64,000 nt of DNA, taken from IMG/VR virus record IMGVR_UViG_3300032219_000626, one strand, 5' to 3'. A model generated the notes under the pieces. The model was not told where the DNA came from, did no database searches, and worked only from the letters and a program-made list of their open reading frames with translations. The stretch is from an uncultured virus (IMG/VR IMGVR_UViG_3300032219_000626) (Duplodnaviria > Heunggongvirae > Uroviricota > Caudoviricetes). The first letter of the stretch is position 1, and each line of letters starts with the position of its first letter. The position numbers were made by a program, and so were the translations under genes. This document shows positions 1 to 41,148 of this stretch, piece by piece.

Positions 1-763
1 GTAGTGCTTCATTCATTGGCAAACACAATCCACCATATCTGCGAGGAAGAATCATAAAGTCAAAGCCTGTATATAGTTCTGCTCTATCATCTGGATTACT
101 GTTATCTATAGTTAATCTAGGGTCGTCACATTCTGGCTTAAAGTCGCCCTGCACGGTAACAACAAGTTCATAGTCAGCCTTGGAATGTTTAAGCATTTCA
201 ATAACAGTGTTGGTTCCATTTCTATCTTTAGCTGCCCTCTTGCCAGCAACATGAAGTATACGCTTGTGAGTCTTAGCAATATTTACCTCTTTAGCAGCAT
301 TAAAAATTGCTGGGGTAGTTGGTGGTGGAAGATGCATAACACTAGACTTATAAGTAAAATACTTTTGCATAATATCTATATTCCATGTAGTGGGACCAAG
401 AAGAATGTTGGGTTGCCTCATTCCATCAATAACAAAGTATTCAAAAAACTCGTAGTTGTATTGCAAGATTGTTTTGATTCCACGTCTATGGGCTAATGCA
501 GCAAGCCTTTTATTATAAAATATTTCACAACTAATTATTACATCCACACTATTTAAAAAAGTGTTTACCTCTATGGTAGATGCAAAACCATTTTTAGTTG
601 TCAAAACATCGTATTTATTGTACCATTCTGGAAACTGCTTGTTGCCATTAAAGTGTGATGAATCAATCAACAAAATTTTATGTGGATTCAGCATCTCAAC
701 AAGTTCTTTAGTCTGGTAACCAAGACCAGTCTTGTCTGCCCTAGCAATAATTCCTAGCCTCAT
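1..763 (-). CDS. GT-B (GT4-like) glycosyltransferase, runs off the left edge
   Basis: Hand-translated, not in the ORF track: MRLGIIARADKTGLGYQT...FDFMILPRRYGGLCLPMNEAL resembles the GT4 PSxxEGFGLPxxEA motif; ATGA overlap with upstream gene. Confidence 0.75.
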   Translation of the reverse strand, partial: MRLGIIARADKTGLGYQTKELVEMLNPHKILLIDSSHFNGNKQFPEWYNKYDVLTTKNGFASTIEVNTFLNSVDVIISCEIFYNKRLAALAHRRGIKTILQYNYEFFEYFVIDGMRQPNILLGPTTWNIDIMQKYFTYKSSVMHLPPPTTPAIFNAAKEVNIAKTHKRILHVAGKRAAKDRNGTNTVIEMLKHSKADYELVVTVQGDFKPECDDPRLTIDNSNPDDRAELYTGFDFMILPRRYGGLCLPMNEAL

Positions 764-1533
764 GTCTCAGTCAATCCCCAAGAAATATCGTCACCAGTAA
801 ACTTCTTGAGTCCTTGGCGACCATCTGTGTGGTAAGAACGTTTGTTATTTGTCTTGTTTGGATAATAAATCCAAAGCTTGTGCTTTTCCCAACCCTCTTT
901 AGACTTGTTGTTTCTCCAAGGAATAATATATTCTTCATAGGCAACGCTATGCATATAGTCTTCAATAAATGTTTTTTCTGGCATATCTGCTAAAACTATT
1001 TCTTTGTAATAGGAAACTTTAGATAGGTGAGGTCTTTGACTCCATTGAACTGTTTCTAAAAACTTTTCAGACCAGTCTAACATCAGCCAATCGTGAACAT
1101 CTGGCACTAGTGCCTCGTGATAAAAACGAATAGTGTTTGCTTTGCCAGACTCAATGTGATTGATACAAGCATCCCAGTCAATTAGTTCATCAATTACGAG
1201 TGGGGTGTCTCCTTCAATATAAACCATTAGAGGAGTCTTAATTAAATCAATTGTTTTTTTCATCATAGTGCTCTGGTGTGAATGTTCTTCAAAAATGATT
1301 GGTAAAATATTTTCATATTCATGCAAGCATTTCCAAAGCATTCTTGTTTTATACTCGTCATACTGTCTTTTGCGGTGACTCTGCTCTTCTCTAAGCCCAT
1401 CAATCTGAAGAATGATTTCGCTATCTGGTAAGTGATGTCTAATGCTTTTAATTGTTTCTTCAACAATATATGTTTCTGGGTGGCTAGGAATTACCGAGGT
1501 AACCAAAACAACTGTGATATCTTTTTTATTCAT
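760..1533 (-). CDS. putative GT-A fold glycosyltransferase
   Basis: N-terminal ITVVLVTS, YIEGD acidic motif, inside a coupled GT operon. Confidence 0.55.
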   Translation of the reverse strand: MNKKDITVVLVTSVIPSHPETYIVEETIKSIRHHLPDSEIILQIDGLREEQSHRKRQYDEYKTRMLWKCLHEYENILPIIFEEHSHQSTMMKKTIDLIKTPLMVYIEGDTPLVIDELIDWDACINHIESGKANTIRFYHEALVPDVHDWLMLDWSEKFLETVQWSQRPHLSKVSYYKEIVLADMPEKTFIEDYMHSVAYEEYIIPWRNNKSKEGWEKHKLWIYYPNKTNNKRSYHTDGRQGLKKFTGDDISWGLTET

Positions 1534-2386
1534 TTATTTGCTCCATAATCTTATATGCAAAATCTCTCTTATACTTTATCCACCAGCTAACTGCCCTGTG
1601 CATATTTGCAGGATAGTCTAGCAATTCGTTTTCCACAATATAAAAAAGTTTTTTCCATCTTGTAGTTTTTGGAATAAAGGGTGTTTTTTGTTCAAACATA
1701 AAATCCCAAAAATTTTGTGTTTCATTCAGTGAGTTTTTTAAATCTCCAACAGGTATAGACAAGAGTTCCAGTGCTTCATAAAACCTAAAAGAGTCTATGG
1801 TGGATGTTCCTGCTGGAGCTGGAACAACTATAGATTCGGTTATATGTTTGTAATATTCTTTTGGTTTGTAGCCTTGGGTAAATCCATTAGTAGGGTTAAA
1901 CAAACTTCTCGGAATAGTTGGCATAAATTCAGCAAGCTCTTGTCTTCTACAGTGGGAAATCTGTCCAGAAAAGAACACAGCATTCTTTTTTTTAGAGTAT
2001 TCTGGCAAATTATCTTTCATATGCGATGGACATCCAATAGGCATCTTGTTAAACTGATTATGCCTATCTGGATAAGGAGACTGAATCCATATTTCTATAT
2101 TGTTATGAGATATTTTGTCTGCTCTAAATACACCACGCTCGTCGCCAGTTATAAAAAGAACAACTCTTTTAACTTTATTTAGCTCAGAAGAAACTTCGTT
2201 TATTAGTTGCTTGTTTTCAAAGCCACAAATAACTACAAAAGCTCTGTCGCATTCTGGCAATGAGGTAACTTCAGAATACTCAATCTTGTTTTTATCAAAA
2301 GCTTCTTTGACAAAACCAAAGTCCCACTTGTGGTCTGCAAAACTTTTTCCATCTACGCCCAGTAGATATGCTTTAATATCACTCAT
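1526..2386 (-). CDS. exostosin/GT47-like glycosyltransferase
   Basis: VFFSGQ...RRQEL...VPAPAG..IDSFRFYEALELLSIPV matches the exostosin-like C-terminal pattern; start moved to MSDIKAY. Confidence 0.6.
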   Translation of the reverse strand: MSDIKAYLLGVDGKSFADHKWDFGFVKEAFDKNKIEYSEVTSLPECDRAFVVICGFENKQLINEVSSELNKVKRVVLFITGDERGVFRADKISHNNIEIWIQSPYPDRHNQFNKMPIGCPSHMKDNLPEYSKKKNAVFFSGQISHCRRQELAEFMPTIPRSLFNPTNGFTQGYKPKEYYKHITESIVVPAPAGTSTIDSFRFYEALELLSIPVGDLKNSLNETQNFWDFMFEQKTPFIPKTTRWKKLFYIVENELLDYPANMHRAVSWWIKYKRDFAYKIMEQINE

Positions 2387-3089
2387 AGTAAAGGTGTGCC
2401 TCGTGCTGATAGTCAATTAGTGTTTCTTCATATCCAAATTCATCTCTAAGCCAGTGACGAAGTTCTGCAAGATATTTGCCATACTGGTGGAACATAAATT
2501 CTGGGTGACCAGATAGCCAAATCTTTGGCTTATAATTTTTAAGAACGTGATATGCTCCACCAAGAACCTTCCACTCGCTGCCCTCAACGTCAATTGTGAT
2601 GGCGGTAGGTGCTTTAATCCCGTAGTCATAAACACAAGAATCAATAGTAATCTGACCGTAGTTGTCTCCTTCAAGGTAAAGTTCTTTAAATCCATGAGCT
2701 GCCTCAATTATTTGTTTTGATTCTGGTGGAAACTCATTCTTGTATACCCTAGCAAGTTTGTTAATCTGGTCTGAAGCAAAAGCAGGTATACACGCTAATG
2801 GCAATTCCAGGTTATTGGCTTCCCAAACTGCTGGCATATGAGACCACACCTTTGGGTTAGGCTCAAACAAAACTACTTCGGCTCCCCACATTTGACACAG
2901 TGCTGGCATCTCTCCCTCTTCAGCCCCAACGTAATAGATTACGTCTCCTTTGCCAAGACCATTATGCATAGACTTTAGCCTAGGTTTTTCCCAACCTTTT
3001 TCCGTATACCACTCTGGTCGTTCTGCTCTATGTTTAGGTAGTACCATTTCCCATTCTCCATTGAGAATAGCTTTTACCATTTCAGTCAT
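2379..3089 (-). CDS. FkbM-family SAM-dependent methyltransferase
   Basis: YYVGAEEG, VLFEPNP and IDVEGSEWKVLGGA motifs. Confidence 0.8.
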   Translation of the reverse strand: MTEMVKAILNGEWEMVLPKHRAERPEWYTEKGWEKPRLKSMHNGLGKGDVIYYVGAEEGEMPALCQMWGAEVVLFEPNPKVWSHMPAVWEANNLELPLACIPAFASDQINKLARVYKNEFPPESKQIIEAAHGFKELYLEGDNYGQITIDSCVYDYGIKAPTAITIDVEGSEWKVLGGAYHVLKNYKPKIWLSGHPEFMFHQYGKYLAELRHWLRDEFGYEETLIDYQHEAHLYYE

Positions 3090-3748
3090 TCTAAATACCT
3101 GCCTTTTGTTATTTTGCTAACATGATTTTCATCATCCTCTTTTGGAAAGTATTTCATATCAGCGTCTTTTTTATTAAATGGTGTCGGATAGTATTCTTCT
3201 ATCTGATTTCCACCACCAGGATAATGTCCCCATTTATTGTAAAAATATTGATGAAGAATGTTATCATTAGACCTTACCCCACCAATATTAATGCTGTGTC
3301 CCATAATTGTATCAGACACATCAAAAGTTATTTTTTCCCACTTAACATTAGGAATTGCTTTCTTAATTCTAATTGCGTAATCTAAATCATCGTATCCATA
3401 TGGAGTAAAGTTTTCATCCCATTCTCCAACGGCATCGATAACGTCTCTTCTAAAAGCCATCAAGTGCCAACCAAACAATGGCTTTCCCTCAACAACCTGG
3501 GCATCAGTTTTTGATAAATGTTCTATGATATCTAAGCCACCACTATCTCCAAACCTAATTGCCGCACTTGCAATAATAAGCCAGTCTGCATCATCTTCAT
3601 AAAGTTTTTTAACTCCAAGATTGTGACTAGCCATTACACCAAGATTGTTCTCAGTGTTATCTATTTCAAGAATATCTAGTTTACAGTTTTTCATAAACTT
3701 GTCACGAAACTCTTTTACACGAAATGGCAAACACACTACATATTTCAT
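3086..3748 (-). CDS. GT2-like glycosyltransferase
   Basis: AFRRDVIDAVGEWDENFTPYGYDDLDYAIR is a typical GT2 C-terminal motif. Confidence 0.75.
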   Translation of the reverse strand: MKYVVCLPFRVKEFRDKFMKNCKLDILEIDNTENNLGVMASHNLGVKKLYEDDADWLIIASAAIRFGDSGGLDIIEHLSKTDAQVVEGKPLFGWHLMAFRRDVIDAVGEWDENFTPYGYDDLDYAIRIKKAIPNVKWEKITFDVSDTIMGHSINIGGVRSNDNILHQYFYNKWGHYPGGGNQIEEYYPTPFNKKDADMKYFPKEDDENHVSKITKGRYLE

Positions 3749-4710
3749 TAGATTCCCAACTCACTTAAAATAGTTTGCCATCTATGTTTGTATGTATGCT
3801 CAAGCTTAGTACGCTCATGCCCAGCAGTCCTGATTACCTCTCGCTCATCATCATTGACAAGATAGTAATCAATCTTTTGTTTTAGGTCTTGCAGGTTGCC
3901 GTGCTCATAAAATACAATTTCCTTGCCATCCTCAAAGTATTCTTCTAGTCCTACGATGCGAGGGTAGATAGTAAACCCACCACGACCAGTAGACTCAAAT
4001 AGTCTATCGCTGGTATAGTATGGATAGGTAAAGTTAATGTTGAGAGTATCTCCAATTGCTACCTTGCTTCTGGCATAGATTCGGTTTAGCTCATAGCCAC
4101 GCACAGTCCCTGTGTCACCATCTCCACCAACGTGCAAGAAACGTTCTCCATAGGTCTGTCTTAGGAAGTCAATTAGTTCTGGGCGGTATGGATACTCGTG
4201 GTGATATCTTTTGCTACCAACAAAAATTACATCGTAATCAAAGTTATCTTTGTTGTATGCTTTGTCAATATAACATTCTTCGCCAAATACACCAGCGGTA
4301 AGAAAGTGTCCCTTTACATTAGTATTATCATTAAACCAATCAGCCATTAGTTTATCTACTGTAAAGAAATGTCCAATAGTTTTATAGAAGTTGTCCTGCT
4401 CCAGGTCTTTTTGTCGGTCTAATCCAAACCAGAGGTCAAGGTGATAGGTCATTGTCTGAATGCCCTGCTCGTGAAATCTTTCCAAAATATCGGTCATTGC
4501 ATACATTCCAGGGGTTTCCCAGCCGTGAGTGTGTACCCAAATAAAAAGGTCAGCGTTGAATGCTTTAGTTCTTCTGTAAATTTTATCAGATGGCATGATG
4601 CGTTCTTGCATCTTCATTACATTGTGTCCCAATGCTTCCAAGCTCTTTACGTGATGATTTTCACTGCTGTAGGGTACTTCAAAGTTACCCAAAAATACTA
4701 TGTTTGCCAA
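3748..4710 (-). CDS. CgeB-like GT-B glycosyltransferase
   Basis: YDVIFVGS, SDRLFESTGRGGF, FEDGKEIVFY, HTYKHRW. Confidence 0.8.
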   Translation of the reverse strand: MANIVFLGNFEVPYSSENHHVKSLEALGHNVMKMQERIMPSDKIYRRTKAFNADLFIWVHTHGWETPGMYAMTDILERFHEQGIQTMTYHLDLWFGLDRQKDLEQDNFYKTIGHFFTVDKLMADWFNDNTNVKGHFLTAGVFGEECYIDKAYNKDNFDYDVIFVGSKRYHHEYPYRPELIDFLRQTYGERFLHVGGDGDTGTVRGYELNRIYARSKVAIGDTLNINFTYPYYTSDRLFESTGRGGFTIYPRIVGLEEYFEDGKEIVFYEHGNLQDLKQKIDYYLVNDDEREVIRTAGHERTKLEHTYKHRWQTILSELGI

Positions 4711-8204: not shown

Positions 8205-8276
8205 GGTCCCATCGTCTAGTGGTAAAGACTCCAGATTTTCAATCTGGCAACAGGGGTTCAATTCCCCTTGGGACTG
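8205..8276 (+). tRNA. tRNA-Glu(TTC), no encoded CCA
   Basis: Acceptor GGTCCCA/TGGGACT; anticodon arm CCAGA-TTTTCAA-TCTGG; T arm AGGGG-TTCAATT-CCCCT. Confidence 0.92.
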
Positions 8277-8279
8277 CTA

Positions 8280-9562: not shown

Positions 9563-9635
9563 ACCCCTATAGCTCAGTGGATAGAGCAAGAGCCTTCTAA
9601 TCTCTTGGTCGTAGGTTCGATTCCTACTAGGGGTG
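9563..9635 (+). tRNA. tRNA-Arg(TCT), no encoded CCA
   Basis: Acceptor ACCCCTA/TAGGGGT; D arm GCTC/GAGC; anticodon loop CTTCTAA; T arm GTAGG-TTCGATT-CCTAC. Confidence 0.88.
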
Positions 9636-10298
9636 CTTTTCATATTTACTAGGATTTGGAAAAGCATCTTTGAGATAACTGTCTAACACTCCCTGAAACG
9701 TTTCGTCATTTGTTGATATAAAGGGCAATGGGCTGTTTATAATTTTATCTAAAGTAACATGATTATGAATTTTTACATCGTCGTGCCACTCGCCCCCTAC
9801 ATTATAAACATTTCCATAATTTGAACGCCATAGACCAAGCATCCTTACAACTTTTGCAAGTCCAGTCTTATGCATTATCATGGGCACATGAAGCTCATAG
9901 CTTAACGGATTATCATACCCAATATAATTAAGAGCGTTGTTAGTTTCTTCAAGAAGAGTTCTGTAACCTATGCTAACTTTTATCATATCGATGTGGCTTT
10001 GTAGTGTCCCACGATGATAGATACCCATTTCTTCCATTGGTTTAATTATAAAGAAATCATCATTCATTAAAATAAAGTTTTCAGAAACATCATAGTTTCT
10101 AGCAACAGCAGCCAAGTTTGACCTGGCATTATTGTATTTGTCAGAGTTTTGTTTTAGTGTGACATGGTTACCAATGTACCAATCTGGCTTGCCACCAAAT
10201 ACCCAGATGTTGTCGTGCGGTAGATTTTCTACAGCAGACCTGATAGAGTATCTTAACTCTTCGTTGTCTCCATCTTTACAGATGTAAACTAAATCCAT
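9627..10298 (-). CDS. Stealth-family-like sugar-phosphate transferase
   Basis: DLVY, EELRYSIRS and ENFILMNDDFFI resemble Stealth conserved regions 1/2. Confidence 0.65.
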   Translation of the reverse strand: MDLVYICKDGDNEELRYSIRSAVENLPHDNIWVFGGKPDWYIGNHVTLKQNSDKYNNARSNLAAVARNYDVSENFILMNDDFFIIKPMEEMGIYHRGTLQSHIDMIKVSIGYRTLLEETNNALNYIGYDNPLSYELHVPMIMHKTGLAKVVRMLGLWRSNYGNVYNVGGEWHDDVKIHNHVTLDKIINSPLPFISTNDETFQGVLDSYLKDAFPNPSKYEKHP

Positions 10299-10435
10299 TA
10301 TTCAGCCAATCGTTCGTATGCCCAGCCAAGGACAGCAGCAGCTACCTCGTCGTTCTCCAGGTCTTTTTCCATTATGAGTTCTCTAAGCTTCGCAAAGAAA
10401 ACATATCTTGGGTCGGATTCATTAATCTCGTCCAT
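10298..10435 (-). CDS. small hypothetical protein (leaderless)
   Basis: TG-G-TATACT-N6-ATG; MDEINESDPRYVFF... Confidence 0.55.
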   Translation of the reverse strand: MDEINESDPRYVFFAKLRELIMEKDLENDEVAAAVLGWAYERLAE

Positions 10436-10489
10436 CATATAAGTATACCAAATGTTTGCATTCTCTGCTGTATCTGGTATAATAGATAC

Positions 10490-10627
10490 ATGGAAGAAAT
10501 CAAAGCACTCTTGGCAGAGTGGGAAGAAGAAGGTACAGCGTCTGCTGCTGGTGTTGAAAAAACATACCACATCCTAAATCTCCTAATCGCCAAGATAGAA
10601 CAGTTGGATGCCCAACTTAACGGATAA
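10490..10627 (+). CDS. 45-aa hypothetical protein (leaderless, divergent promoter)
   Basis: TG-G-TATAAT-N6-ATG; MEEIKALLAEWEEEG... Confidence 0.55.
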   Translation: MEEIKALLAEWEEEGTASAAGVEKTYHILNLLIAKIEQLDAQLNG

Positions 10628-10728
10628 GTATCGTTATCAAGTTTTCCCAGAAAGAGTTTATCTTATTAGGGATAACATTGGCAATGTTGTTGAAGTTACT
10701 GGACAACAAATAATAGAAAGTTTAGGCA

Positions 10729-10914
10729 ATGGACAGAAAATTAAAGAGACAGAACGAGAGACTTCTGAACTCAATCAAGCGTAAGGCTAAGAAGGATATG
10801 GAGAACTGGATGTTGGCTCTCCCAGAACTGCCAAGTGAAGGCGAAGTAAAGGCTTTCCAGGCTGGATACATCGCAGGTGTTAGTAGAGGTTCGATTGAAA
10901 ATGAGAGACTTTAA
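10729..10914 (+). CDS. hypothetical protein
   Basis: ORF in operon context. Confidence 0.55.
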   Translation: MDRKLKRQNERLLNSIKRKAKKDMENWMLALPELPSEGEVKAFQAGYIAGVSRGSIENERL

Positions 10915-11148
10915 AGACCCACATTACAGTGGCAACGCCTGTGTCTGTTGCAAGGCTCCAGAAGGGGTCGTAGAGTACCGTGAGAGGCTGCTAGAGGCTC
11001 TTAAACAGGAGCAAGAGCGTTCTAGACTAGGCTTTATTCAATATAAGACTTTAGAAAGGATTCTAGATGAAAATCGTTGAGGGACTTCTGGCAATTGGAG
11101 CAATCGCAATATTGATTGTTATAACATGGTTTGTAGATAAGTACAAAG

Positions 11149-11604
11149 ATGATTACTGGGAAGATGAAGAAACTGAGTAGGATTGTTTTAGTTACAGGCG
11201 GCTTTGACCCTGTACACTCTGGACATATTGCATACATTAGAAGTGCCAAAGAGCTGGGTGATAAGTTGTTTATTGGTCTTAATTCTGATGATTGGCTGAC
11301 TCGTAAAAAGGGTAAGCCTTTTATGCCATTTTATGAGCGTGAGACTGTGCTAGACAGCATCAAGGGGGTAGACGGAGTGTTTGGATTTGATGACTCAGAT
11401 GGCTCTGCCAAAGATGCAATTAACATTTTACTAAACCACTACAAGAACGACCATATTATCTTTGCTAATGGTGGAGACAGAACAAGTATAAACATTCCAG
11501 AGATGGACATAGAGTCTGACAGACTATCATTTGAGTTTGGTGTTGGTGGATTCTATAAGGCTAACAGTTCTAGTTGGCTACTGAATGATTGGAAGACTAA
11601 TTAA
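11149..11604 (+). CDS. cytidylyltransferase-like nucleotidyltransferase
   Basis: VTGGFDPVHSGH (HxGH), GLNSD, FANGGDR. Confidence 0.88.
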   Translation: MITGKMKKLSRIVLVTGGFDPVHSGHIAYIRSAKELGDKLFIGLNSDDWLTRKKGKPFMPFYERETVLDSIKGVDGVFGFDDSDGSAKDAINILLNHYKNDHIIFANGGDRTSINIPEMDIESDRLSFEFGVGGFYKANSSSWLLNDWKTN

Positions 11605-12319
11605 ATTAATTGCATTTGACTTAGATGGTACGCTCACAGAATCCAAGCAACCAATAGACAATAAGACTGCTAGGTTTCTAGCCAGTCTTGCCAATGATTA
11701 TGAGATAGCCATTGTTACTGGCGGTACAATGGAACAGATTAAGACACAGGTATTGGATAGACTACCAAACTGGGTACAAGACAAGATGCATCTAATGCCC
11801 TGCTCAGGTGCTGAATACTTTAGGTTTGGAGATACGCTCTATCGTAACTTTATCTCAAAGCAAGAGAGAGCAGTCATGGTTCCTATGGTGACTGGGCTGC
11901 TAAAACAAATGGGGTATTGGATTGAGAACCCTGCAGGAGACATCATAGAAGACAGAGGCTCACAGATAACAATATCAGCCTTGGGTCAAAAGGCAAAACC
12001 AAAGGATAAAGAAGAGTGGGACCCATACGGAAATAAGCGTAGAGAGATTAGGGATGCCATTAAAGCCATGTTCCCTGAGTATAGTGTTAGAGTTGGTGGA
12101 CTAACTAGCGTAGACATCTCAATGTCTGGGATTGATAAAGAGTTTGCAATCAAAGAGATTCTTGAGTGGAATCAGTTTGAGCCATCGGATGTTCTTTATG
12201 TTGGGGATAAGTTTAGACCAGGTGAGAATGACTATCCTGCTCTACTGGCTGGAGTCACCTGTCTAAGAGTAACAAGTTATACAGACACACCTAGAATAGT
12301 TGGTAAGTATCTTGGCTAA
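11585..12319 (+). CDS. HAD-IIB hydrolase, phosphomannomutase-like
   Basis: AFDLDGTLT, IVTGG, IEDRGSQIT, GGLTSVDI, YVGDK..PGEND. Confidence 0.85.
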   Translation: MIGRLIKLIAFDLDGTLTESKQPIDNKTARFLASLANDYEIAIVTGGTMEQIKTQVLDRLPNWVQDKMHLMPCSGAEYFRFGDTLYRNFISKQERAVMVPMVTGLLKQMGYWIENPAGDIIEDRGSQITISALGQKAKPKDKEEWDPYGNKRREIRDAIKAMFPEYSVRVGGLTSVDISMSGIDKEFAIKEILEWNQFEPSDVLYVGDKFRPGENDYPALLAGVTCLRVTSYTDTPRIVGKYLG

Positions 12320-14918: not shown

Positions 14919-15191
14919 CTAGTCCTCTTCTAGGTCTAGGTCTTCCAGCATCTCTTTTAGGTCTTCGAAACCTGTATCTTCTAAGGCTACCAAGCCTAGC
15001 AACATTTCCCAAGTATCACTAATAAAGTTATCTGCCTCTGGCGTTGTCTTTACAATGCCTTTGCTGATAACATAGGCTAGTGGGAAACCGATGTCTGCAT
15101 ACTGAAAGAACTCTGCGAAGTAACCTTCGTCACGATAGTCCATCCATAGTTGGGATAGTATCTCTGCTTGTGTTTCTATTGGTGTGTTCAT
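14919..15191 (-). CDS. acidic hypothetical protein (leaderless)
   Basis: Box promoter 15198-15222, then N6-ATG. Confidence 0.7.
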   Translation of the reverse strand: MNTPIETQAEILSQLWMDYRDEGYFAEFFQYADIGFPLAYVISKGIVKTTPEADNFISDTWEMLLGLVALEDTGFEDLKEMLEDLDLEED

Positions 15192-15391
15192 ACTTCTATT
15201 ATACCCTGACCCTTCGACATTTTTTCTTGTTCTGCTGTTTCTGTGATTTCTTGTAGTCTGCGATAGACCACATTGGGATTGTCTCTAGCGATTGAAACGC
15301 CAACCATTTCTAGGTCAATCGTTACATCACTAACTAAATGTGCTATCTTAGTCGCTACTTTCTGTTCTGGTGTGATTATCTTTCTACGCAT
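15188..15391 (-). CDS. hypothetical protein
   Basis: SD AGGAG; box promoter 15418-15442. Confidence 0.65.
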   Translation of the reverse strand: MRRKIITPEQKVATKIAHLVSDVTIDLEMVGVSIARDNPNVVYRRLQEITETAEQEKMSKGQGIIEV

Positions 15392-15456
15392 ACTGCTCCT
15401 ATTTAGTTATCTATTCGATTATACCTCATACCCCAGACATTATGGGGAAGTTGTTT

Positions 15457-15532
15457 GGGGGACTAGGACAAGAAAGGAAAAGAATCCCAGTCCCCCTGTA
15501 GAGCCATGTCCAACCCCTTAGACACTCTCTAC
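15457..15532 (-). ncRNA. two-hairpin candidate sRNA with anti-SD loop
   Basis: GGGGGACUGGGA/UCCUAGUCCCCC stem with loop UUCUUUUCCUUUCUUG; G-U pairs only on the minus strand. Confidence 0.5.
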
Positions 15533-15563
15533 TATGGTAAGGAGTAAACTCAGCCTACCAATT

Positions 15564-15893
15564 CTAGTACATCACTACCAAATCTAATACATCCTTTGGC
15601 TCTACCGTTTCGGCTGAGGGTAGTGATAGCAATGCTTGCCTAAGACGTGGTGGAGCCTTCTCTAGGAAACCTTCCAGGGTATCCGTCCAGTCCATACCGT
15701 AGTCGTTCTCTGGATACTGGCTACGAAGATAGCGTGTCTCTGCAAAGTTTGTATCGATAAACCAGTTGCTATAGGTAACGTCGCTAAGACCATTGTCCAT
15801 GGTCCATAGCACAGGGTTGATACGCAATGTATCTGAGTATACATTGTCATCTTCCTCTACGAAGTAGATGTTTAGGTCCCAGTCTTTAATCAT
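15564..15893 (-). CDS. hypothetical protein
   Basis: Likely start MIKDWDL. Confidence 0.6.
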   Translation of the reverse strand: MIKDWDLNIYFVEEDDNVYSDTLRINPVLWTMDNGLSDVTYSNWFIDTNFAETRYLRSQYPENDYGMDWTDTLEGFLEKAPPRLRQALLSLPSAETVEPKDVLDLVVMY

Positions 15894-16077
15894 CGTAGAA
15901 GCCTTCCTGAACATCCAAAGCAGTTCGCTGTAGAAGTTCATCAAGATAGTTAGCCACTGAACCTTCTACGTCACTGATGATAGTTTTCCATACTTCATCA
16001 GACAGTGGTAGGTCTACTAAGTCTGCGTCAAGAAAACTCTCAAAGTTCTCCTTGTCAATCTGCCATTCTTCAAACAT
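15886..16077 (-). CDS. acidic hypothetical protein
   Basis: Likely start MFEEWQ. Confidence 0.55.
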   Translation of the reverse strand: MFEEWQIDKENFESFLDADLVDLPLSDEVWKTIISDVEGSVANYLDELLQRTALDVQEGFYDD

Positions 16078-17533: not shown

Positions 17534-17854
17534 ATTTCTCCTTCTTGTTGTAGTTACAGTATACGATACCCCTCAGACATTTATTCAGGGGATTTTGGGG
17601 AAACATCGTAATGAATCGTAATAGAGAAATAATATATATAAAGATATATAGAGATGGGGTGCCCAGCTCCCTACTGCTCAACCAAATAAATAAATGTCAA
17701 CACAACCATGACAGCAACTAAATAGTCAGCAATCACTTCTTAGGACAAACTTTATGACCTATACGCTTGTAGTAGGACTTCCATACTTGACCACATTCCT
17801 TACACTGGTAGTAGTCGTAGTAGTCGTCACCTTTGATTTTCCACATTGGTTTCA

Positions 17855-18318: not shown

Positions 18319-18510
18319 TTAGTCTTCCTCGTCTTCCTCATCTTCTTCTTCTAGGGCTTCTACTTCGATAGAGTAAACTCCGTCATAGACAATAGGGCTG
18401 TCGTAGGTTTCACCCCAACTAGTCCAAGCAAGTTGCTCTGCGTGTTCCTCGCTGTCTGCTTCAATCTCACCAGAAAACTCAATCATCATTTCTACTTGGT
18501 ATCTAGGCAT
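18319..18510 (-). CDS. very acidic small protein with IEADSEEHA motif
   Basis: Box promoter and SD AAAGGAAGG. Confidence 0.75.
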   Translation of the reverse strand: MPRYQVEMMIEFSGEIEADSEEHAEQLAWTSWGETYDSPIVYDGVYSIEVEALEEEDEEDEED

Positions 18511-18662
18511 TTGCCTTCCTTTCTTGTTGTTACTATTTTACATCTACCCCCAGACATTTATTTGGGGAAATCGTAAGGCTATCGTAAATTGATTATGGCT
18601 ACCTGGGGGCACCGCCCAGCTCCCCCACCCACTAGGGGTAGGAGAGCCAGAAGAAGAATGGC

Positions 18663-20594: not shown

Positions 20595-20836
20595 TTCTTT
20601 CCTTTCCTTGTTACTACTATTATAAATAGAACCACGGACATTTATTTGGGGGAACTTAATGTAGTATCGTAAATGATATAGGTAAGCTTGGGGGCACCGC
20701 CACCCCAGATAGCAAAAATCCCCCTGCTATTACTAACAAGGGGATTGCTCTGGTAGCCATACTTTCACACGCCACACCAGCCCGTGTCTTCTAGTTCATT
20801 GTATCAACTAGCAACTTCACTATCTATCTAGATAGA

Positions 20837-23694: not shown

Positions 23695-23795
23695 ACTGAT
23701 AAGTATAGCAAAACCCACAGACATTTATTTGGGAGATTTTTAATGTGTTACGTAAAGGGGGTGGGGCTAGGGGGGCACCCCCGAAGGGGTAGGAA

Positions 23796-24317
23796 TTACT
23801 CCCCACTCCCTCTAACTACAATCCAAATTAGGGCTTGCATTGCTCTAGGGGTCATGCCGTGTTTGGTAGCCACAGCAGTTACAGCGTCTGCCATTTCTTT
23901 ATACTGCGACTGCGTAGGTGTCTTTTTCTCAATGCCTAACGCTCGCAACATCCAAACATCAATCACGACTGCATTTTCGTTACCAGCGATAGCCTTAGCA
24001 AAGTTGTTAGTCTTGAGACCTTTAAGAGCGTCGAATCCTAGCGTGAGTGCTTTCTCTGCCATGCGGATGTTATTGCCTAGCACTCCCTTTAGTTCGTGAC
24101 CGAGTGAAAACTTTACTGCATTAGTAACATTACGAGACCAACGCTCACGAGGGCTAAAAGCAGATACAACAGTTGCTCCAATCTCAAGGGTAGTGTTTAG
24201 GTTAGTTGCAACTTCACGAGCAACGGTCTCAGCGTCAAGATACCATTTAGTGGCTTGCTCAACCTGACCAAAGGTTGCTTTTTTGGCAATGTCTGAATAG
24301 ATTTTGGTGTATGACAT
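23796..24317 (-). CDS. hypothetical protein, possibly HhH DNA-glycosylase-like
   Basis: WY, SAFSPR..W..N, GLKTNNF...VVIDVWM.RA, QA.IW. Confidence 0.5.
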   Translation of the reverse strand: MSYTKIYSDIAKKATFGQVEQATKWYLDAETVAREVATNLNTTLEIGATVVSAFSPRERWSRNVTNAVKFSLGHELKGVLGNNIRMAEKALTLGFDALKGLKTNNFAKAIAGNENAVVIDVWMLRALGIEKKTPTQSQYKEMADAVTAVATKHGMTPRAMQALIWIVVRGSGE

Positions 24318-24559
24318 GGGGCTGTCTCCTTCTTGTTGATAGTCTTATTATACATTTAGGGTGGGACATTTATTTATCGTAACGTAAAGGAGCTTTGCCA
24401 GGAGGGCGGTGCCCCCAGCACACCCTAGAAGGGTGGCTGAAGTTCCTCGTTCTCTCTCCAAAGTTTATTGACTAGCCTAAGCAGCACGAGGTTTATTGCT
24501 GTAAGAACCACAACACCAAAACCAACAATCCAAAAGAGAAAAGCAATCCAATCATTCAT

Positions 24560-24730
24560 TTATTCTCCCCAACAAGCGTCTACAAACTTTTCGGTAATAA
24601 AGCGGTCGTTGTCCTCACGAAACATAACCGCAAAACTTTCCACTAGGCTGTCGAAAGTTGTGTCGTCAATGTCCTGTAGGTGTCCTTTTAGGATTTCTGC
24701 GGTAGTCACATAGTCTTTGCGTGTCATCAT
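24560..24730 (-). CDS. small hypothetical protein
   Basis: MTRKDYV..A.IL...F..DN.RF..EKF..AC. Confidence 0.6.
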   Translation of the reverse strand: MMTRKDYVTTAEILKGHLQDIDDTTFDSLVESFAVMFREDNDRFITEKFVDACWGE

Positions 24731-24948
24731 TAGTTTTACTCTCTTTCCGATACTTCGATTAGTTTTAGTCGTTCTTTGTCTGATAGCATAGCCCAAGCCC
24801 AACCAAAAGCATAGGCGTAGGCTTCCGAGTTGCTAAAGTCTTTGTTAGCCATTAGGTTTTTGATTACTTCGCTGTTTCTGAACATTAGTTGTTCTTCCAT
24901 TAGTTTTACCTTTCGTTGTGATTACAGTTTACCAATACCCACAGACAT

Positions 24949-25122
24949 TTATTCTGTAGGCTCAAGCCACTCAACGCCATTTACCCAAAAGCGAGCAATA
25001 CGACCTTTGTAGTATGCGTCAATAAGCCAATCTAGTTGAACCTCGTTTTCTAGTGGAGCCTCAATCTCAAGGGTAGAACCGTTGTCCATTTCGACTACAT
25101 AAATGTTCATTGTGTTTCGCAT
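24949..25122 (-). CDS. 57-aa hypothetical protein
   Basis: Hand-translated; bounded by two box promoters; stop abuts ATGTC. Confidence 0.6.
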   Translation of the reverse strand: MRNTMNIYVVEMDNGSTLEIEAPLENEVQLDWLIDAYYKGRIARFWVNGVEWLEPTE

Positions 25123-25241
25123 AGTTTTCCTTTCGTTGTAGTTACAGTTTACCGCATACCACAGACATTTATTCGGGTGCTTTTTAATACACTACGTAAA
25201 GTGTTATCAAACCGTTATTCGGGTGCCCCCAGCTCCCTGCC

Positions 25242-25400
25242 TCAGTCGAAGCAGAAGGGAGCGTCTAGGAACTCCGCATAAGCCTCTTGCAAGGCTTGCT
25301 GGCGTTCAGCCCTGTCTTGGGCTGCCAACTCCTCGGGAGAATACTCGTCCTCCTCAAAGTAGTTCTCAGCGATGTCGTCCCAGCCAAAATCTTCGTCCAT
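25242..25400 (-). CDS. 52-aa highly acidic protein
   Basis: MDEDFGWDDIAENYFEEDEYSPEELAAQ... Confidence 0.6.
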   Translation of the reverse strand: MDEDFGWDDIAENYFEEDEYSPEELAAQDRAERQQALQEAYAEFLDAPFCFD

Positions 25401-25669
25401 TAGTTATCCTTTCGTTACCACCATTGTAACAACCACCTCGGACATTTTGGGGGATAATCTTAAAACTATTTAATAACGTTTAGGTAACGAATCGGGGTGC
25501 CCCCCTGGCGTGTCGCTACCTGCTAGGCAGGGCGAACGCAGAGGTTGCAGACAAACATACTCTTAGCAATCTGCCTAACTAGGTAGGCATCTGCAGGGCG
25601 GTTGCAAAGTTCGCAAAGGTTCTCCTTGCGTTCCTGTGGGGTTAGTTTGATGCTGGGCATAGGCTCTCC

Positions 25670-25915
25670 TTAGTTAGCGTTTGGGTAGTTTGGTGATAGG
25701 TCAAGGGTGTTGTAGGTTGCTTCATTCTTGTTCAGCAGGGTCAGGCGATAGACAATGCCAGAGTTAGAGAAACGGCGAGCAACCTCAAAGTGTTCGCATA
25801 GTCCAAAGTTTTTGATGTTCTTGCCAGCAGCGTAGGCGTTAGCAAAGGTGTCATAGGTCTGGATGGTCTGGCTCACGAAGAGCAGGTTTGGGCTAAGGGT
25901 CAAGGGGAACTCCAA
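25670..25915 (-). CDS. hypothetical protein (start uncertain)
   Basis: Downstream of box promoter 25935-25959. Confidence 0.55.
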   Translation of the reverse strand: MEFPLTLSPNLLFVSQTIQTYDTFANAYAAGKNIKNFGLCEHFEVARRFSNSGIVYRLTLLNKNEATYNTLDLSPNYPNAN

Positions 25916-26039
25916 TCAATCAACTTACGAAGTAAGTCTAACAGCCACCTCAGACATTTATTATTATTTTGAGAGACATTTCGGGACATTTTTAATCGGT
26001 AACGTAAACTGTTACCAAATCGTTATCGGGGTGCCCCCC

Positions 26040-26069
26040 TGTGGATAACTTTTAGCTACCTGTGGATAA
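26040..26069 (-). promoter_or_regulatory. two DnaA boxes
   Basis: TGTGGATAA at 26040 and 26061. Confidence 0.7.
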
Positions 26070-26591
26070 CTATTTCTTTTGTGTAAGCGGAAGCAATTAG
26101 GGCAATAGCCTCGTCATACTCTTCCCAAGTGTCAAACTTTAGAATAATCATTAGTTAGCCTTTCTTTTAGCGTCAGGGTATTCCTTGAGGAATGAAGTCA
26201 CATCTCGCCAGTGGATAGCCGAAACAACTAGGCTTCCATTTAGGGAGTATTCAAATAGAGTGTATCCGTTTGGCATTAGTTGCCCTTTCTTGTTTGTAGT
26301 TACAGGTTACCATTAGGGGCAGACATTTATTTGCTAGGCTCACCATTACGGATTATTTGCTAGGCTCTTGCTACCCCTAAAACTTATTTGCCCATTGCTC
26401 TGGCAACCAACTGCTTACCCTCATCGCTAACCACAGCGAACAACGAACCAGCGACATAGACATAGGCGGTATTAGCGTCATAGCCATAGCGTTCCATTGC
26501 GTATTCAACAAGGTCAGTTAGAGTTGGAGTTTCAGTCATTTCATTTCTCATTTCTTTTGGTTGATTACAGTTTAGGGGATACCACGGACAT

Positions 26592-26735
26592 TTATTTATT
26601 TAGTTTGTCAAACTGAAACTGAAGCCAGTGAACCTCGTCATAGTCTTCAGGCGTGTCAATGCCTAGGGCGATTAGTTTGCCTAGGTTTTCAATGGCTAGG
26701 TCTAGGGCTAGTTTTGCGTCAAGTGCTTTCTTCAT
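26592..26735 (-). CDS. 47-aa protein, paralog of 27683-27820
   Basis: AKLALDLAIENLGKLIALGIDTPEDYDEVHWL. Confidence 0.7.
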   Translation of the reverse strand: MKKALDAKLALDLAIENLGKLIALGIDTPEDYDEVHWLQFQFDKLNK

Positions 26736-27075
26736 TTATTCCTTCTTTCTATCTACCTATAAGGTATCACGAACCACGGACATTTATTTACCAAAACAGG
26801 GGGTTTTTTGGCTTGTTACTTAAACCGTTACCAAAACGTTATTTTGGGGTGCCCCACGCAGTCGGGCGTGTCGCCAGGGTAGAGCTAGAACGGTGGCTTA
26901 TTCCGTTCCAACTCTTCCTCTAGCGATTTGATTACCATATTTTTGTACCAAGCATAGCAAGCCCAAGCAAGAGATAGGATAACAATCCATGATAGCGTTG
27001 GAGACATTTTTTCCTTTACTGATTGAATAGAACGATAAGAGCGATTAGGATTAGACTACCAAACACCACAGACAT

Positions 27076-27234
27076 TTAGACGCTACCGCCTAGTTTCTGG
27101 ATGTGACGAACAAGGGCTAGCATGAAGTCTAGTTCTGCGTGTGATAAGTAGTCAAGGTTCTCGGCTTCACGAACGAGTGAGTTGAGTTTTAGTTTTGCTT
27201 GTTTTAGGGTCAAGTCTGCTAGTGCTGTTTCCAT
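27076..27234 (-). CDS. 52-aa hypothetical protein
   Basis: METALADLTLKQAKLKL...; stop abuts promoter box. Confidence 0.55.
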   Translation of the reverse strand: METALADLTLKQAKLKLNSLVREAENLDYLSHAELDFMLALVRHIQKLGGSV

Positions 27235-27266
27235 TTTACTGCCTTTCGATTAGTTTGAGTTTAGCA

Positions 27267-27524
27267 TTAGGGGCGGACATTGTTTTTAGGGCAGTAGTCA
27301 ATCTGTCTTGACTTTTTGTAGCCAACAAAACCATTAGGGCTAACCTTTTGTTCTAAGATTAGTTCGTGTTCCCAACCTTTACCGAACAACGAGTTTGTTA
27401 CACGCTCTCCACAGTTGGCACACTCACCAAACCATAGTTGGTTGTTCTGGCGGTAGCCATCGGCTGGGTTTAGAACCTTGAAGCCGTTGCCGATACCTTG
27501 AGTTCTTGTTTCTTGAATAGTCAT
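27267..27524 (-). CDS. hypothetical Zn-ribbon protein
   Basis: CANCGE...W.H...YCP. Confidence 0.65.
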   Translation of the reverse strand: MTIQETRTQGIGNGFKVLNPADGYRQNNQLWFGECANCGERVTNSLFGKGWEHELILEQKVSPNGFVGYKKSRQIDYCPKNNVRP

Positions 27525-27682
27525 TTATTTCTCATTTCTTTTAGTTACTTACAGTTTAGTGTATGCCACAGACATTTATTATTCAAAACAGGGGCTTTTT
27601 TTCGTTCTTACGTAAAACGTTACCAAATCGTTATTTTTGGGTGCCCCCACGCTGTCGGGCGTGTCGCCCTGGTGGGGTATTG

Positions 27683-27820
27683 CTAAGAACGCTTTAGTTC
27701 TTGCTCTAGCCAATACACTTCGTCATAGTCTGCATCAGTGTCTAGCCCTAGAGCGATTAGTTTCTCTAGGTTTTCTTTTGCTAGGTCGAAAGCGATTTTT
27801 GCGTTTAGTTCTTTGTTCAT
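27683..27820 (-). CDS. 45-aa protein, paralog of 26592-26735
   Basis: AKIAFDLAKENLEKLIALGLDTDADYDEVYWL. Confidence 0.7.
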   Translation of the reverse strand: MNKELNAKIAFDLAKENLEKLIALGLDTDADYDEVYWLEQELKRS

Positions 27821-28003
27821 TTCATTTTCCATTTCTTTTTGTTACTTTGCTTATTCGCTAGGCTCACCGATTACTCGTTTATTTGCTAGGCTTACAAATC
27901 TTTTCTGTTTTTCTTTATACCTATAGTATAAACACCCCCACGGACATTTATTATCTCAAACACACCTTTTTTCGGGGGTTTTTGTAACAGAATTGTAACG
28001 AAG

Positions 28004-28024
28004 TTATCCACAGAGTTATCCACA
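28004..28024 (+). promoter_or_regulatory. two DnaA boxes
   Basis: TTATCCACA-GAG-TTATCCACA. Confidence 0.75.
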
Positions 28025-28250
28025 GGCGGTGCCCCCACGCTGTCGGGCGTGTCGCAGGGTAGCGACTAGACTACTAAGTAGTCAAGCCAGTCATACTCCG
28101 CAACCGCATCCTTTACAGTCATGATACCCTTGTACTCGTTACAAGTAGGGCAAGAGTGTGGAGCGAGGTTGAAGGTTCTCTCACAAAATACACAAACAAA
28201 CATTAGTTATCCTTTCTTGATACTTTTAGTGTAGCAGTTGCTACAGACAT

Positions 28251-28490
28251 TTATTCTACGTGAGCAGAGCAGACATAGGCTACATCCTGCTCCTCAACGA
28301 TACGCTTGCTTGACTTGGAGTAGCGAGGTCTAGCATAGGTCTCAATGACGGTGACAGTCTCGCCACAGTTGCAGCAAGGGCAACCGTCATCGGCTACGCT
28401 AACTTGGCATCCTGCAAAGTATTGTGCTTCATCGGCGGTAGCAGGGCGAGTAGCAATCAGGGTCCAACTGTAGTCAAACATTTCGTTCAT
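28251..28490 (-). CDS. Cys-rich hypothetical protein
   Basis: Start corrected downstream of the promoter. Confidence 0.6.
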   Translation of the reverse strand: MNEMFDYSWTLIATRPATADEAQYFAGCQVSVADDGCPCCNCGETVTVIETYARPRYSKSSKRIVEEQDVAYVCSAHVE

Positions 28491-28893
28491 TTCGTTCTCC
28501 GTTCTTGTTGTTATCAGTCTATACCCTAGCACAGACATTTATTACCAAACACGCCAAATAAATGTAACGATTTGGGGGAAAATTGTTATCGAACTTAACG
28601 GCGTGTCGATTTGACAAAAGCCCAGATTTTGGGGCACCGCCACGCTGTCGGGCGTGTCGCCCTGGTAGCCCTAGGGGATAAGCCCTACGACATACAGCAT
28701 TAGGCTTAGGCTACCTAGTATCAGTAGACCAGCGAGGGTAGCCATTATGACAATGGTCAAGTCATCCATTAGGTTACGCATTAGTTACACCATAGGCAAT
28801 CGATGTCGTCACAAGGGTTTTCTGCTGAGTAGTCTTCGTTTTCGTTCATTTCTATCTCCTTCTTGATTACAGTTTACTTGATAGGTCAGACAT

Positions 28894-40700: not shown

Positions 40701-41148
40701 AAAGACAGAGTATCCAGTAGTATCTTTAGACGAATGGTTTACTCTTGGAATAAAGTTTAAAACAGTTTACGCCTTTACAAGTAAAGCTGGGACAATAAAT
40801 ATTTCTGGACCAATGCTCATGAACAACTTTGTTTATGCACAGCTAAAGTCTGGAGACGAACATGGTCTTGTGTTGGTAGAAAATATTTGGATTAATGTTC
40901 TTTATGACACAAACTCGCTTCAAACATGGAACGACTATACAACAGGTGTTTGGTCAGATATCATATCCCAATCATCTGGCACAGAAATTCGTGGACTATC
41001 ATCAGAAGAAATATACAAGACATTTACTGGAACATCAAGAAATTCAGCTGGTGGCTACTCTTCTGAGCAGTATGTTGGTACACAAAACTTTAGTTATACA
41101 ATATACACAGACATAAAGTCGTCACAAATAACCATTGAACCTGCATAA
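37729..41148 (+). CDS. large virion structural protein (lectin-like beta domains)
   Basis: 1139 aa, beta-rich; EHPIALW.LD and TFETWL motifs. Confidence 0.55.
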   Translation: MANSSNLYAEKIFAEHPIALWTLDNDLKYLSLISDANRSLSAWTFTSSATGTAFDEETPPYYRLGTTVTTVSKASVTTSGSFTATSNFTFSSSDDTFTIGFYYFKTTPYLSSFRIGYKIGAGATQWSSSITTSDFYSWQFASATFNAQPSGANIVIEFNYSQPTVSDSVSVLINGLSVGKWSEDANMENLGSVSSTIPATIPLTGTNLTVVEAPAYSSTSNNGYYIISDGVTGARNSSFPLVYGSSNSTVLSYNDGLPSLIVPGNGFLNESQKTKTRTFETWLRIKAGTSEAKKIIGPIVGNDGIYVDGPHLILNIAGNTLSHYVGEWDRPMLLQVVTSISGAQMFINGDFIGAINYDIEDVALEEYFDGSSDIQDWIGFYCYTDVPRIEVSCVAIYAYAIDKVLAQKRFVYGQGTKHFQDELVSGYDGDSIFPDYSFANYGSNRAYGNNQKYQWTEGILSNCISETNILKSPKYTVPAIVVNPSAAFTDEELLLAQNSPYDHIDLQPTAGWSSVESHILFNNINPIINKTQGIYIVATRSENNTTKQILFKIFNKINGDYLEAYTIRESSTDKIIYKFSHNGTVSSALYTATGNVIGTKFAAGVIFQDLIDNVDSDFYQFFSDSKNLVVYVGGDEAFTTDTTFTGKIYKFSFMDERNLSKVSTQFNSNGFFTGTASTLDSHTASYTLFLNKFDSKIFLDISSNMYWQESVPLSFFAKYVQAPTGTRYALDYLQFNVDYPKPISFSSNEYSTDSSLARTYLTFQTLASGAEADVLSYSTSSRVTSSNVISSSSGYANTKYEMVDGTIIYIPTTADLETLAVVAHMEINADSLVMKPIGIRHLQITGQGLNTDSSNPTKFGTSTGTNLIPYGSVSAAVLPKFTLPYYYLSSNSGMQITGTPSASNGYYININTELSDTFEIGFLQMVAKFNIEQFSTSDVLIFETVNITDNPDTKIRFYVDSANTANTRARIFAKNESGTDYTDVEYYINGIKTEYPVVSLDEWFTLGIKFKTVYAFTSKAGTINISGPMLMNNFVYAQLKSGDEHGLVLVENIWINVLYDTNSLQTWNDYTTGVWSDIISQSSGTEIRGLSSEEIYKTFTGTSRNSAGGYSSEQYVGTQNFSYTIYTDIKSSQITIEPA

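Follow-up and report, generated by a model that had tools for sequence, protein, structure and literature searches.

To our knowledge, regulatory RNAs of lytic phages that infect uncultured freshwater hosts are almost unknown. Among Gram-positive small RNAs that target Shine-Dalgarno (SD) sequences, the hairpins of RNAIII, RsaE/RoxS and the actinobacterial 6C RNA present pyrimidine-rich hairpin-loop seeds to G-rich ribosome-binding sites, and the phage RNA c4 is a regulator that is cut out of its transcript. As set out in one review (PMC12197685), the c4 antisense RNA of P1 and P7 comes from the transcription unit of its targets, and its complementary sequences, probably situated in loops, pair around the ribosome-binding site and block translation; the same review presents DicF as a dicB prophage operon product that is not translated and has a terminator-like structure. 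The PeSL cassettes of T4-type phages are reported (PMC2839356, PMC4122927) to combine a repeated intergenic stem-loop with an early promoter and flank small variable genes. Here we describe a phage locus that resembles each of these in part, and for which a literature search of limited coverage returned no description of such an element.

The window, by which we mean the whole stretch of 64,000 nt that was analysed, is a phage genome with a G+C content of about 40%. From about 33 kb its plus strand carries the structural genes, among them those for a portal protein, a capsid protease, a 2771-aa tape-measure protein and a major head protein. The window also encodes a ribonucleotide reductase and two tRNAs:

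8205-8277, plus strand: tRNA-Glu(UUC)
9563-9636, plus strand: tRNA-Arg(UCU)

The capsid protease is about 50% identical to those of large Streptomyces siphoviruses, and judged by its genes the phage is large and siphovirus-like. A 1139-aa ORF (37729-41148, plus strand), which lies 5' of the portal gene with a 128-aa ORF in between, stands approximately where the large terminase is expected and has no PHROGs match at 1e-5 and no Pfam match at 1e-3. A cluster of glycosyltransferase, methyltransferase, Stealth-like and heptose-phosphate kinase/adenylyltransferase-like genes (1-4710, minus strand, and 9627-12319) possibly modifies the host surface or the phage's own DNA or virion. Sequencing runs that contain window DNA are labelled freshwater or lake metagenomes. 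Nucleotide searches of the region against GenBank phages, in near and distant modes, gave 0 matches, and the nearest record (G001) does not cover the hairpin region; the motif of hairpin H2 (see below) was absent from the 185,579 species genomes scanned, and therefore no prophage or host was identified. The minus strand between about 29.2 and 14.2 kb, referred to as the early region, carries small genes, most of which have no family match.

A covarying structured RNA between a stop codon and a promoter

The locus occupies the 172-nt gap between the stop codon of the early gene at 15564-15944 and the start of the gene at 15188-15391. This gap holds four hairpins, three of which (H1-H3; 15457-15560, about 105 nt) lie side by side between the early-gene stop codon and the promoter of the next gene:

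15564-15944, minus strand: upstream early gene, with H1-H3 as its 3'UTR
15535-15560, minus strand: H1, UGGUAGG..GAG[UUUA]CUC CUUACCA, beginning 3 nt past the upstream stop codon (MFE fold)
15498-15532, minus strand: H2, GUAGAG.GUGUCUAA[GGGG]UUGGACAU..CUCUAC (MFE and consensus folds)
15457-15496, minus strand: H3, a 12-13 bp stem, third of the adjacent H1-H3
15469-15484, minus strand: H3 loop, UUCUUUUCCUUUCUUG, pyrimidine-rich and anti-SD-like
15431-15447, minus strand: H4, CCCCAUAAUGUCUGGGG, containing the promoter box AATGTCTG at 15434-15441
15418-15423, minus strand: -10 hexamer TATAAT, 10 nt past the box; promoter of the downstream 67-aa gene
15188-15391, minus strand: downstream gene of a 67-aa protein (P0002)

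On the minus strand H3 reads GGGGGACUGGGA[UUCUUUUCCUUUCUUG]UCCUAGUCCCCC (plus-strand coordinates 15457-15496). Its stem has 12 bp with one G-U pair (13 bp when the closing U-G pair is included), contains 8 G-C pairs and has a stability of -24 kcal/mol; the CU-rich loop has 14-16 nt in the window and, in relatives, 12-14 nt. A preliminary description of this DNA had placed a minus-strand hairpin with a 12-bp stem and its loop here, and both were confirmed from sequence and fold, the span that it gave (15457-15532) being H3 plus H2. When the 179-nt intergenic region was folded as RNA, the minus strand reached -62.5 kcal/mol (z -2.36, 7 of 200 shuffles as good) and the plus strand -46.3 kcal/mol (z -1.21, 26 of 200 shuffles as good), and the H3 loop seed was unpaired in the MFE and consensus folds alike. 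Between 14.0 and 30.5 kb the minus strand has 4 loci with a stem of 12 bp or more, against a mean of 0.35 and a maximum of 2 in 40 mononucleotide shuffles, and all four lie 3' of gene ends and 5' of promoters. The H3 loop, at 14-16 nt, is unusual among them, because the loops of the other three are only 4-9 nt; it is also one of only two pyrimidine tracts of at least 12 nt on the early-region minus strand.

An exact match to the H3 40-mer was found in one IMG/VR contig (L001), in which the flanks are 78-84% identical to the window and the 67-aa protein is only 50% identical, with the 40-nt hairpin identical. Searching with the 67-aa protein yielded 3 more viral loci and 22 metagenome loci, 20 of which include upstream sequence (L031 and L032 are without upstream DNA); the loop motif is present in 16 of the 22. 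Two scans of viral contigs with degenerate patterns recovered the four known relatives and otherwise only chance matches (L005-L007, L009, L012, L017). In L033, with 49% protein identity, H1, H2 and H3 are all present and the H3 loop is UUUCCUACUUUC, the complement of which is GAAAGUAGGAAA. In L038-L040, whose protein is about 54% identical over part of its length, an H1-like hairpin is present and the last hairpin is GC-rich, its loop being UUUGUGGUGGG, which is not CU-rich; an H1-like hairpin is retained even in these distant loci and in L033. Conservation starts with the stop codon of the upstream gene, also in loci with a different gene there (L002, L026, L028 and L033, which have other sequence in place of the gene at 15564-15944, itself without a family match), and therefore the conserved unit consists of the RNA element, the promoter and the 67-aa gene, which always adjoins the RNA element in the loci found. 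The 67-aa protein had no Pfam, PHROGs, Atlas or PDB fold match, and its model comprises three helices (pLDDT 72.7).

A covariance model built from 13 sequences gave 20 matches in 131,055 bases of 23 sources, with a single copy in the window and in each relative and no match in L038-L040. Across an alignment of 16 distinct rows, standard pairs were present in 570 of 570 cells, a figure biased towards structure because the alignment was fitted to the covariance model, and 19 of 37 pairs had changed on both sides: 3 of 10 in H1, where all cells were paired, 8 of 14 in H2 and 8 of 13 in H3. None of 500 shuffles reached any of the measures, and slid registers paired in 39-49% of cells. An independent RNAalifold run on 5 sequences recovered these helices, with compensatory changes from G-C to A-U in them. 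Five pairs have G-U columns, several of them being G-U in 9-16 rows, and the U-G columns of H2 fit the minus strand only. Taken with the better minus-strand fold, the G-U columns indicate an RNA-level structure on the transcribed minus strand, in line with the earlier observation that the G-U pairs work on that strand only. Rfam gave no match at gathering score in the window other than the 2 tRNAs, and a search of 15350-15620 with E up to 10 returned two snoRNA chance matches (E 0.76 and 3.7), far below gathering. Cumulatively, these findings show that H1-H3 is a covarying structured RNA on the transcribed strand, present in a single copy per genome in the gap between a stop codon and a promoter.

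Two metatranscriptome runs (X19 and X20) contained 14-19% of the sampled words and gave low-depth contigs only, with possible DNA carry-over. The bin means of their contigs over 15201-15767 were 2.45 and 1.24, and one contig (15195-15481) ends in the H3 loop, where relatives differ in U3/U4 length; assembled contigs are uninformative on RNA ends, strand or level.

Constraint on the H3 loop

Variable columns were counted over the close relatives that are distinct and of full length, 13 in all; L033 and two rows truncated at the 5' end were excluded:

Linkers and tails: 8 of 9 columns variable
H3 stem: 16 of 26 columns variable
H3 loop: 2 of 14 columns variable, both at the 5' edge
H3 loop core of 11 nt, UUUCCUUUCUU: 0 of 11 columns variable, invariant in 13 of 13
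H2 stem: 4 of 28 columns variable
H2 loop and bulges: 0 of 7 columns variable

Because no core column of the H3 loop varies against 16 of 26 columns of its stem, the loop is under selection, and these counts show strong purifying selection on the loop while the stem changes by compensation. Apart from U3/U4 and A/C differences at the 5' edge, 15 of the 16 distinct sequences have the same loop, carried on at least 6 versions of the stem, including rebuilt, longer stems of 16 bp in L021 and L028; in most relatives it reads UUCUUUCCUUUCUU, a perfect mirror repeat. The conservation of the loop that the preliminary description had called for is found in the 13 close relatives (0 of 11 core columns vary) and does not extend to L033 and L038-L040, which carry other loops.

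H2 is almost invariant as well (4 of 28 stem and 0 of 7 loop columns vary), and this would suit a compact non-coding RNA with some other role, for example a scaffold in which the G-rich H2 loop and the CU loop of H3 meet within or between molecules, the SD likeness being incidental. The two hairpins are of similar length (14 bp for H2, 13-16 bp for H3), the element is single-copy in each genome and, from the sequence, AAGGGG of H2 could pair with UUCCUU of H3. We nevertheless consider such a scaffold quite unlikely: a loop-loop contact has no independent covariation, the lone A/U swap in L033 being explained by H2's own stem, the GGGG loop leaves only 4 free bases, and there is no match to an Rfam family.

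H3 shares with intrinsic terminators a GC-rich stem at the end of a transcription unit (12-13 bp, between the stop codon at 15564 and the next promoter), and it departs from their short loop of about 3-8 nt, with 14-16 nt here and 12-14 nt in relatives. It was not called by a terminator consensus scan. The preliminary description had noted that there is no U-tract, and this follows from the tail, which reads AAACAACUUCCCC; a U-tract directly after the stem is absent in 15 of 16 distinct forms, and only L021 has AUUAUUUUU. The only long canonical terminator on the early-region minus strand lies at 20717-20746 and has a 13-bp stem, a GUAA loop and a U-rich tail. H1-H3 might nonetheless be only a terminator or insulator and a block to 3' exonucleases that shields the next promoter from read-through, with a loop that matters for the efficiency of folding or termination and has no partner. 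Its place between a stop codon and a promoter, shared with the other long early-region hairpins, and the stability of the stem (-24 kcal/mol) are consistent with this, as are the AUUAUUUUU that follows the L021 hairpin and the hairpins with other loops that distant relatives have at the same place. The U-runs of L021 and L038-L040 are, however, ambiguous because they overlap the spacer of the next extended -10 promoter, and 15 of 16 distinct forms lack a U-tract. Moreover, a loop of 14-16 nt destabilises a terminator, and nothing would keep it from shrinking or drifting, yet none of its 11 core columns varies; we regard an insulator without any partner for its loop as unlikely.

Six nt past an SD-like AAGGGG in the loop of H2 stands an AUG, from which a 14-codon ORF, MALQGDWDSFPFLS, runs through H3 (15457-15505, minus strand), and translation through H3 could in principle melt the hairpin. 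Peptide coding does not explain the constraint on the loop, because one-base loop indels shift the frame and change the length of this ORF among relatives. A plus-strand ORF (15273-15521) was rejected likewise, on account of one-base indels. The loop and the -10 hexamer are not equally far apart in the window and in L021; this argues against a DNA operator set at a constant distance from the promoter, and a promoter-positioned DNA site therefore does not explain the constraint either.

Three adjacent hairpins also resemble single-strand initiation signals, and an iteron-like repeat region lies about 250 nt downstream in L033, as would fit an element acting as single-stranded DNA, in priming or recombination near the end of the early region. 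A related possibility is that the element encodes a small peptide from the H2 AUG, given the 14-codon ORF MALQGDWDSFPFLS and its SD-like AAGGGG running through H3. The G-U columns and their agreement with the direction of transcription favour RNA over single-stranded DNA, and the peptide is not conserved (the ORF stops after 5 codons in L021 and has no AUG in L033), making both ideas highly improbable.

Loop complementarity to the early leaders

The octamer AATGTCTG, the promoter box of H4, has 28 copies in the window against 3.35 expected (0 of 100 shuffles had as many), and 19 of them lie on the minus strand between 15434 and 29167. The surrounding layout is (A)ATAAATGTCTG, exactly 10 nt and TAnAnT, with 19 copies of the short form AATAAATGTCTG-N10-TAnAnT; about 20-30 nt past TAnAnT comes a purine-rich leader, with a consensus of approximately ACAAGAAAGGAG, and then ATG. 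The relative G002 has 25 box copies in 20 kb, and the cassette is also present in L041 (1-15000). Box-N10-TAnAnT and leader together make up a repeated promoter-leader cassette. The box stands at the -35 location yet is unlike TTGACA, which suggests a phage-specific factor or an unusual sigma contact. Several cassette copies lie inside or behind hairpins, and the neighbouring genes are mostly without a family.

Some further features of this region may be recorded here. Between 40 and 60 nt 5' of many boxes there is a TTACG(A/T) motif, sometimes doubled, followed by an A-run and CCC (for example at 18560-18600, 17590-17630, 23730-23760 and 25175-25215), and in L033 a 900-nt non-coding stretch (1950-2850) is filled with TTACGA...AAAAAATCCC repeats and looks like a regulatory or origin region. 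Over 23756-28849, blocks of 0.5-1.5 kb are missing from or rearranged in contigs of DNA metagenomes, and several of these contigs break or rejoin at 26327, where a promoter box starts; this pattern fits cassette-mediated gene shuffling of the PeSL kind.

The 9-mer complementary to the loop, CAAGAAAGG, occurs 4 times in the window against 0.75 expected, and 2 of 100 shuffles reach 4. One site is the hairpin's own plus strand and the others are on the minus strand at 18518-18526, 26284-26292 and 28211-28219. The complements that the preliminary description had reported in early leaders, at about 18516-18526, 26284-26292 and 28210-28219, proved to be exact and to be ribosome-binding sites of early genes; they sit 5-10 nt before ATG and are the SD regions of three cassettes:

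18516-18526, minus strand: leader and SD of the gene at 18319-18510, CAAGAAAGGAA, complementary to the loop over 11 nt without a mismatch; predicted duplex -15.7 kcal/mol, better than at any other target in the window
26284-26292, minus strand: leader and SD with CAAGAAAGG, 9 nt before ATG; predicted duplex -12.8 kcal/mol
28210-28219, minus strand: leader and SD of the gene at 28066-28203, CAAGAAAGGA; predicted duplex -13.4 kcal/mol

Its near-matches at 17536, 20595, 23176, 24326 and 28857 gave predicted duplexes of -12.1, -14.9, -14.7, -10.9 and -13.1 kcal/mol, respectively. The shorter AGAAAGGA is not enriched (4 in the window against 3.02 expected; 33 of 100 shuffles had as many).

For the 19 cassette leaders of the window, the mean predicted duplex with the loop was -10.45 kcal/mol, compared with -8.63 +/- 0.75 for 500 permutations of the loop, 4 of which were as good, and 8 leaders reached -12 kcal/mol or better against 1.87 in the loop shuffles (fraction 0.002). 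These leaders are not independent targets because they are copies of one promoter-leader cassette. When both strands of the 64 kb were scanned, 9 of the 13 next-best sites after the loop's own complement were early minus-strand translation-start regions. In G002 the mean was -10.05 against -9.12 +/- 0.66 in loop shuffles (fraction 0.078), and 6 leaders reached -12 or better against 3.4 (fraction 0.166); a comparison of early with all other start regions of the window, for which start codons were set roughly, gave p = 0.078. Predicted pairing of the loop with phage leaders exceeds chance in the window (4 of 500), and to this extent the earlier claim is supported; the excess is weak in G002, and the contrast of early with other starts is no stronger (both 0.078). 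Pairing in cis with the SD of the downstream gene is weak (-6.3 kcal/mol), and it was rejected as a candidate. The H3 loop resembles the CCUCCUUUCU tail of 16S rRNA, and any anti-SD-like CU loop is complementary to extended SD leaders (AAGAAAGGAG). Keeping this in mind, we interpret the predicted complementarity between loop and leaders as real but only moderately specific.

An invariant loop on a stem that is free to change would also be expected if the loop were bound by a protein able to recognise pyrimidine tracts in single strands, one that controls the stability, termination or processing of the early transcript, and the match to SD sequences would then be a by-product of composition. 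Ribosomal protein S1 and cold-shock proteins prefer pyrimidine-rich single strands, and candidates would be S1, a protein with a cold-shock domain or one encoded by the phage, for instance the 67-aa product, whose gene is always adjacent. Such binding is consistent with the mirror-repeat loop UUCUUUCCUUUCUU of most relatives, with the constant company of the 67-aa gene even when the upstream gene differs and with the weak pairing excess in G002. Set against these are the 67-aa protein itself, which has no family or fold match, and the leader pairing in the window, which exceeds that of shuffled loops of equal composition, and we judge a protein partner possible, if rather unlikely.

Our tentatively preferred reading, which we regard as possible, is that H1-H3 is an operon-end (3'UTR) structured RNA whose loop base-pairs with the purine-rich leaders. 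The stable GC-rich stem would end or protect the upstream transcript, as an operon-end hairpin or insulator, and the exposed H3 loop would pair with the purine-rich SD leaders of promoter-proximal early mRNAs and possibly of host mRNAs, lowering translation of these mRNAs when transcription has gone through the distal end of the early region. The preliminary description had proposed a separately made small RNA, and this we did not find supported: there is no conserved promoter 5' of H1, which starts 3 nt after a stop codon, and because the element lacks such a promoter any H1-H3 RNA would be a 3'UTR or processed from one. The RNA would thus act within the mRNA 3'UTR or after processing and not as a separately promoted sRNA. 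Silencing in trans by the H3 loop is unproven, and we infer, with falling confidence, that the element marks or protects the upstream 3' end and insulates the promoter, that the loop has a sequence-specific partner, and that the leaders are this partner.

The phage mRNAs without a leader that the preliminary description had invoked find a counterpart in several plus-strand genes (31283, 37729, 43205, 45662, 49511) with a TATAAT-like hexamer 5-10 nt before the start codon. The plus-strand starts at 31283, 33112, 37729, 43205, 45662, 49511 and 5248 have a TATAAT, TATACT or TAGAAT hexamer 0-10 nt before them and no SD, and leaderless translation is possible because such a hexamer lies just before the start codon. 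Leaderless mRNAs are typical of actinobacterial hosts, and several plus-strand late genes could likewise be leaderless or nearly so and hence able to escape control by the loop. A bolder version, which we consider very unlikely, makes the loop a phage-made mimic of the 16S rRNA 3' tail, a decoy that soaks up host and early phage SD leaders and shifts translation to the apparently leaderless late mRNAs.

Significance and comparison with known systems

H1-H3 is a well-supported structured RNA without an Rfam family: it covaries, occurs once in each genome and keeps an invariant loop while the stem changes. The repeated early leaders of the phage offer a concrete candidate class of partners for the loop. 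Should the loop pair with ribosome-binding sites, the element would be a switch, carried in a 3'UTR, between early translation led by SD sequences and late translation without leaders; failing that, H1-H3 would still represent a terminator-like element that is new and has a sequence-specific loop, and would give access to a new family of phage promoters. Were the decoy reading true, translation would be taken over by an RNA decoy and not by a protein.

Like a Rho-independent terminator, H3 is a GC-rich stem that ends a transcription unit, whereas such a terminator has a loop of 3-8 nt and a U-tract and H3 has a loop of 14-16 nt and no U-tract. DicF resembles H1-H3 in being operon-derived and terminator-like; it differs in being known to be processed and to repress ftsZ, activities that are conjectural for H1-H3. 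The units found here, with 19 copies of box-N10-TAnAnT, are also repeated intergenic stem-loop and promoter units flanking variable small genes, as PeSL cassettes are. Unlike the carriers of PeSL, the present phage is not a T4-type myovirus, to judge by its 2771-aa tape-measure protein and Streptomyces-siphovirus-like capsid protease, and its motif differs from the early promoter motif of T4; moreover, cassettes do not explain the invariant 11-nt H3 loop. With RNAIII, RsaE/RoxS and 6C, H3 shares the display of a pyrimidine-rich loop. Those RNAs are, however, chromosomal genes with their own promoters and terminators and C-rich seeds (UCCC/CCCC), whereas the H3 loop is U-rich with a single CC, lies in a phage 3'UTR and has no Rfam match. 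The c4 RNA has no sequence or Rfam relation to H1-H3 and lies 5' of a single target (ant), whereas H1-H3 stands at an operon 3' end and faces many repeated candidate leaders, any processing or action of its own being putative. In the mode of action proposed here, c4 is nonetheless the closest of these systems, with the H3 loop likewise proposed to pair with ribosome-binding sites of the same phage.
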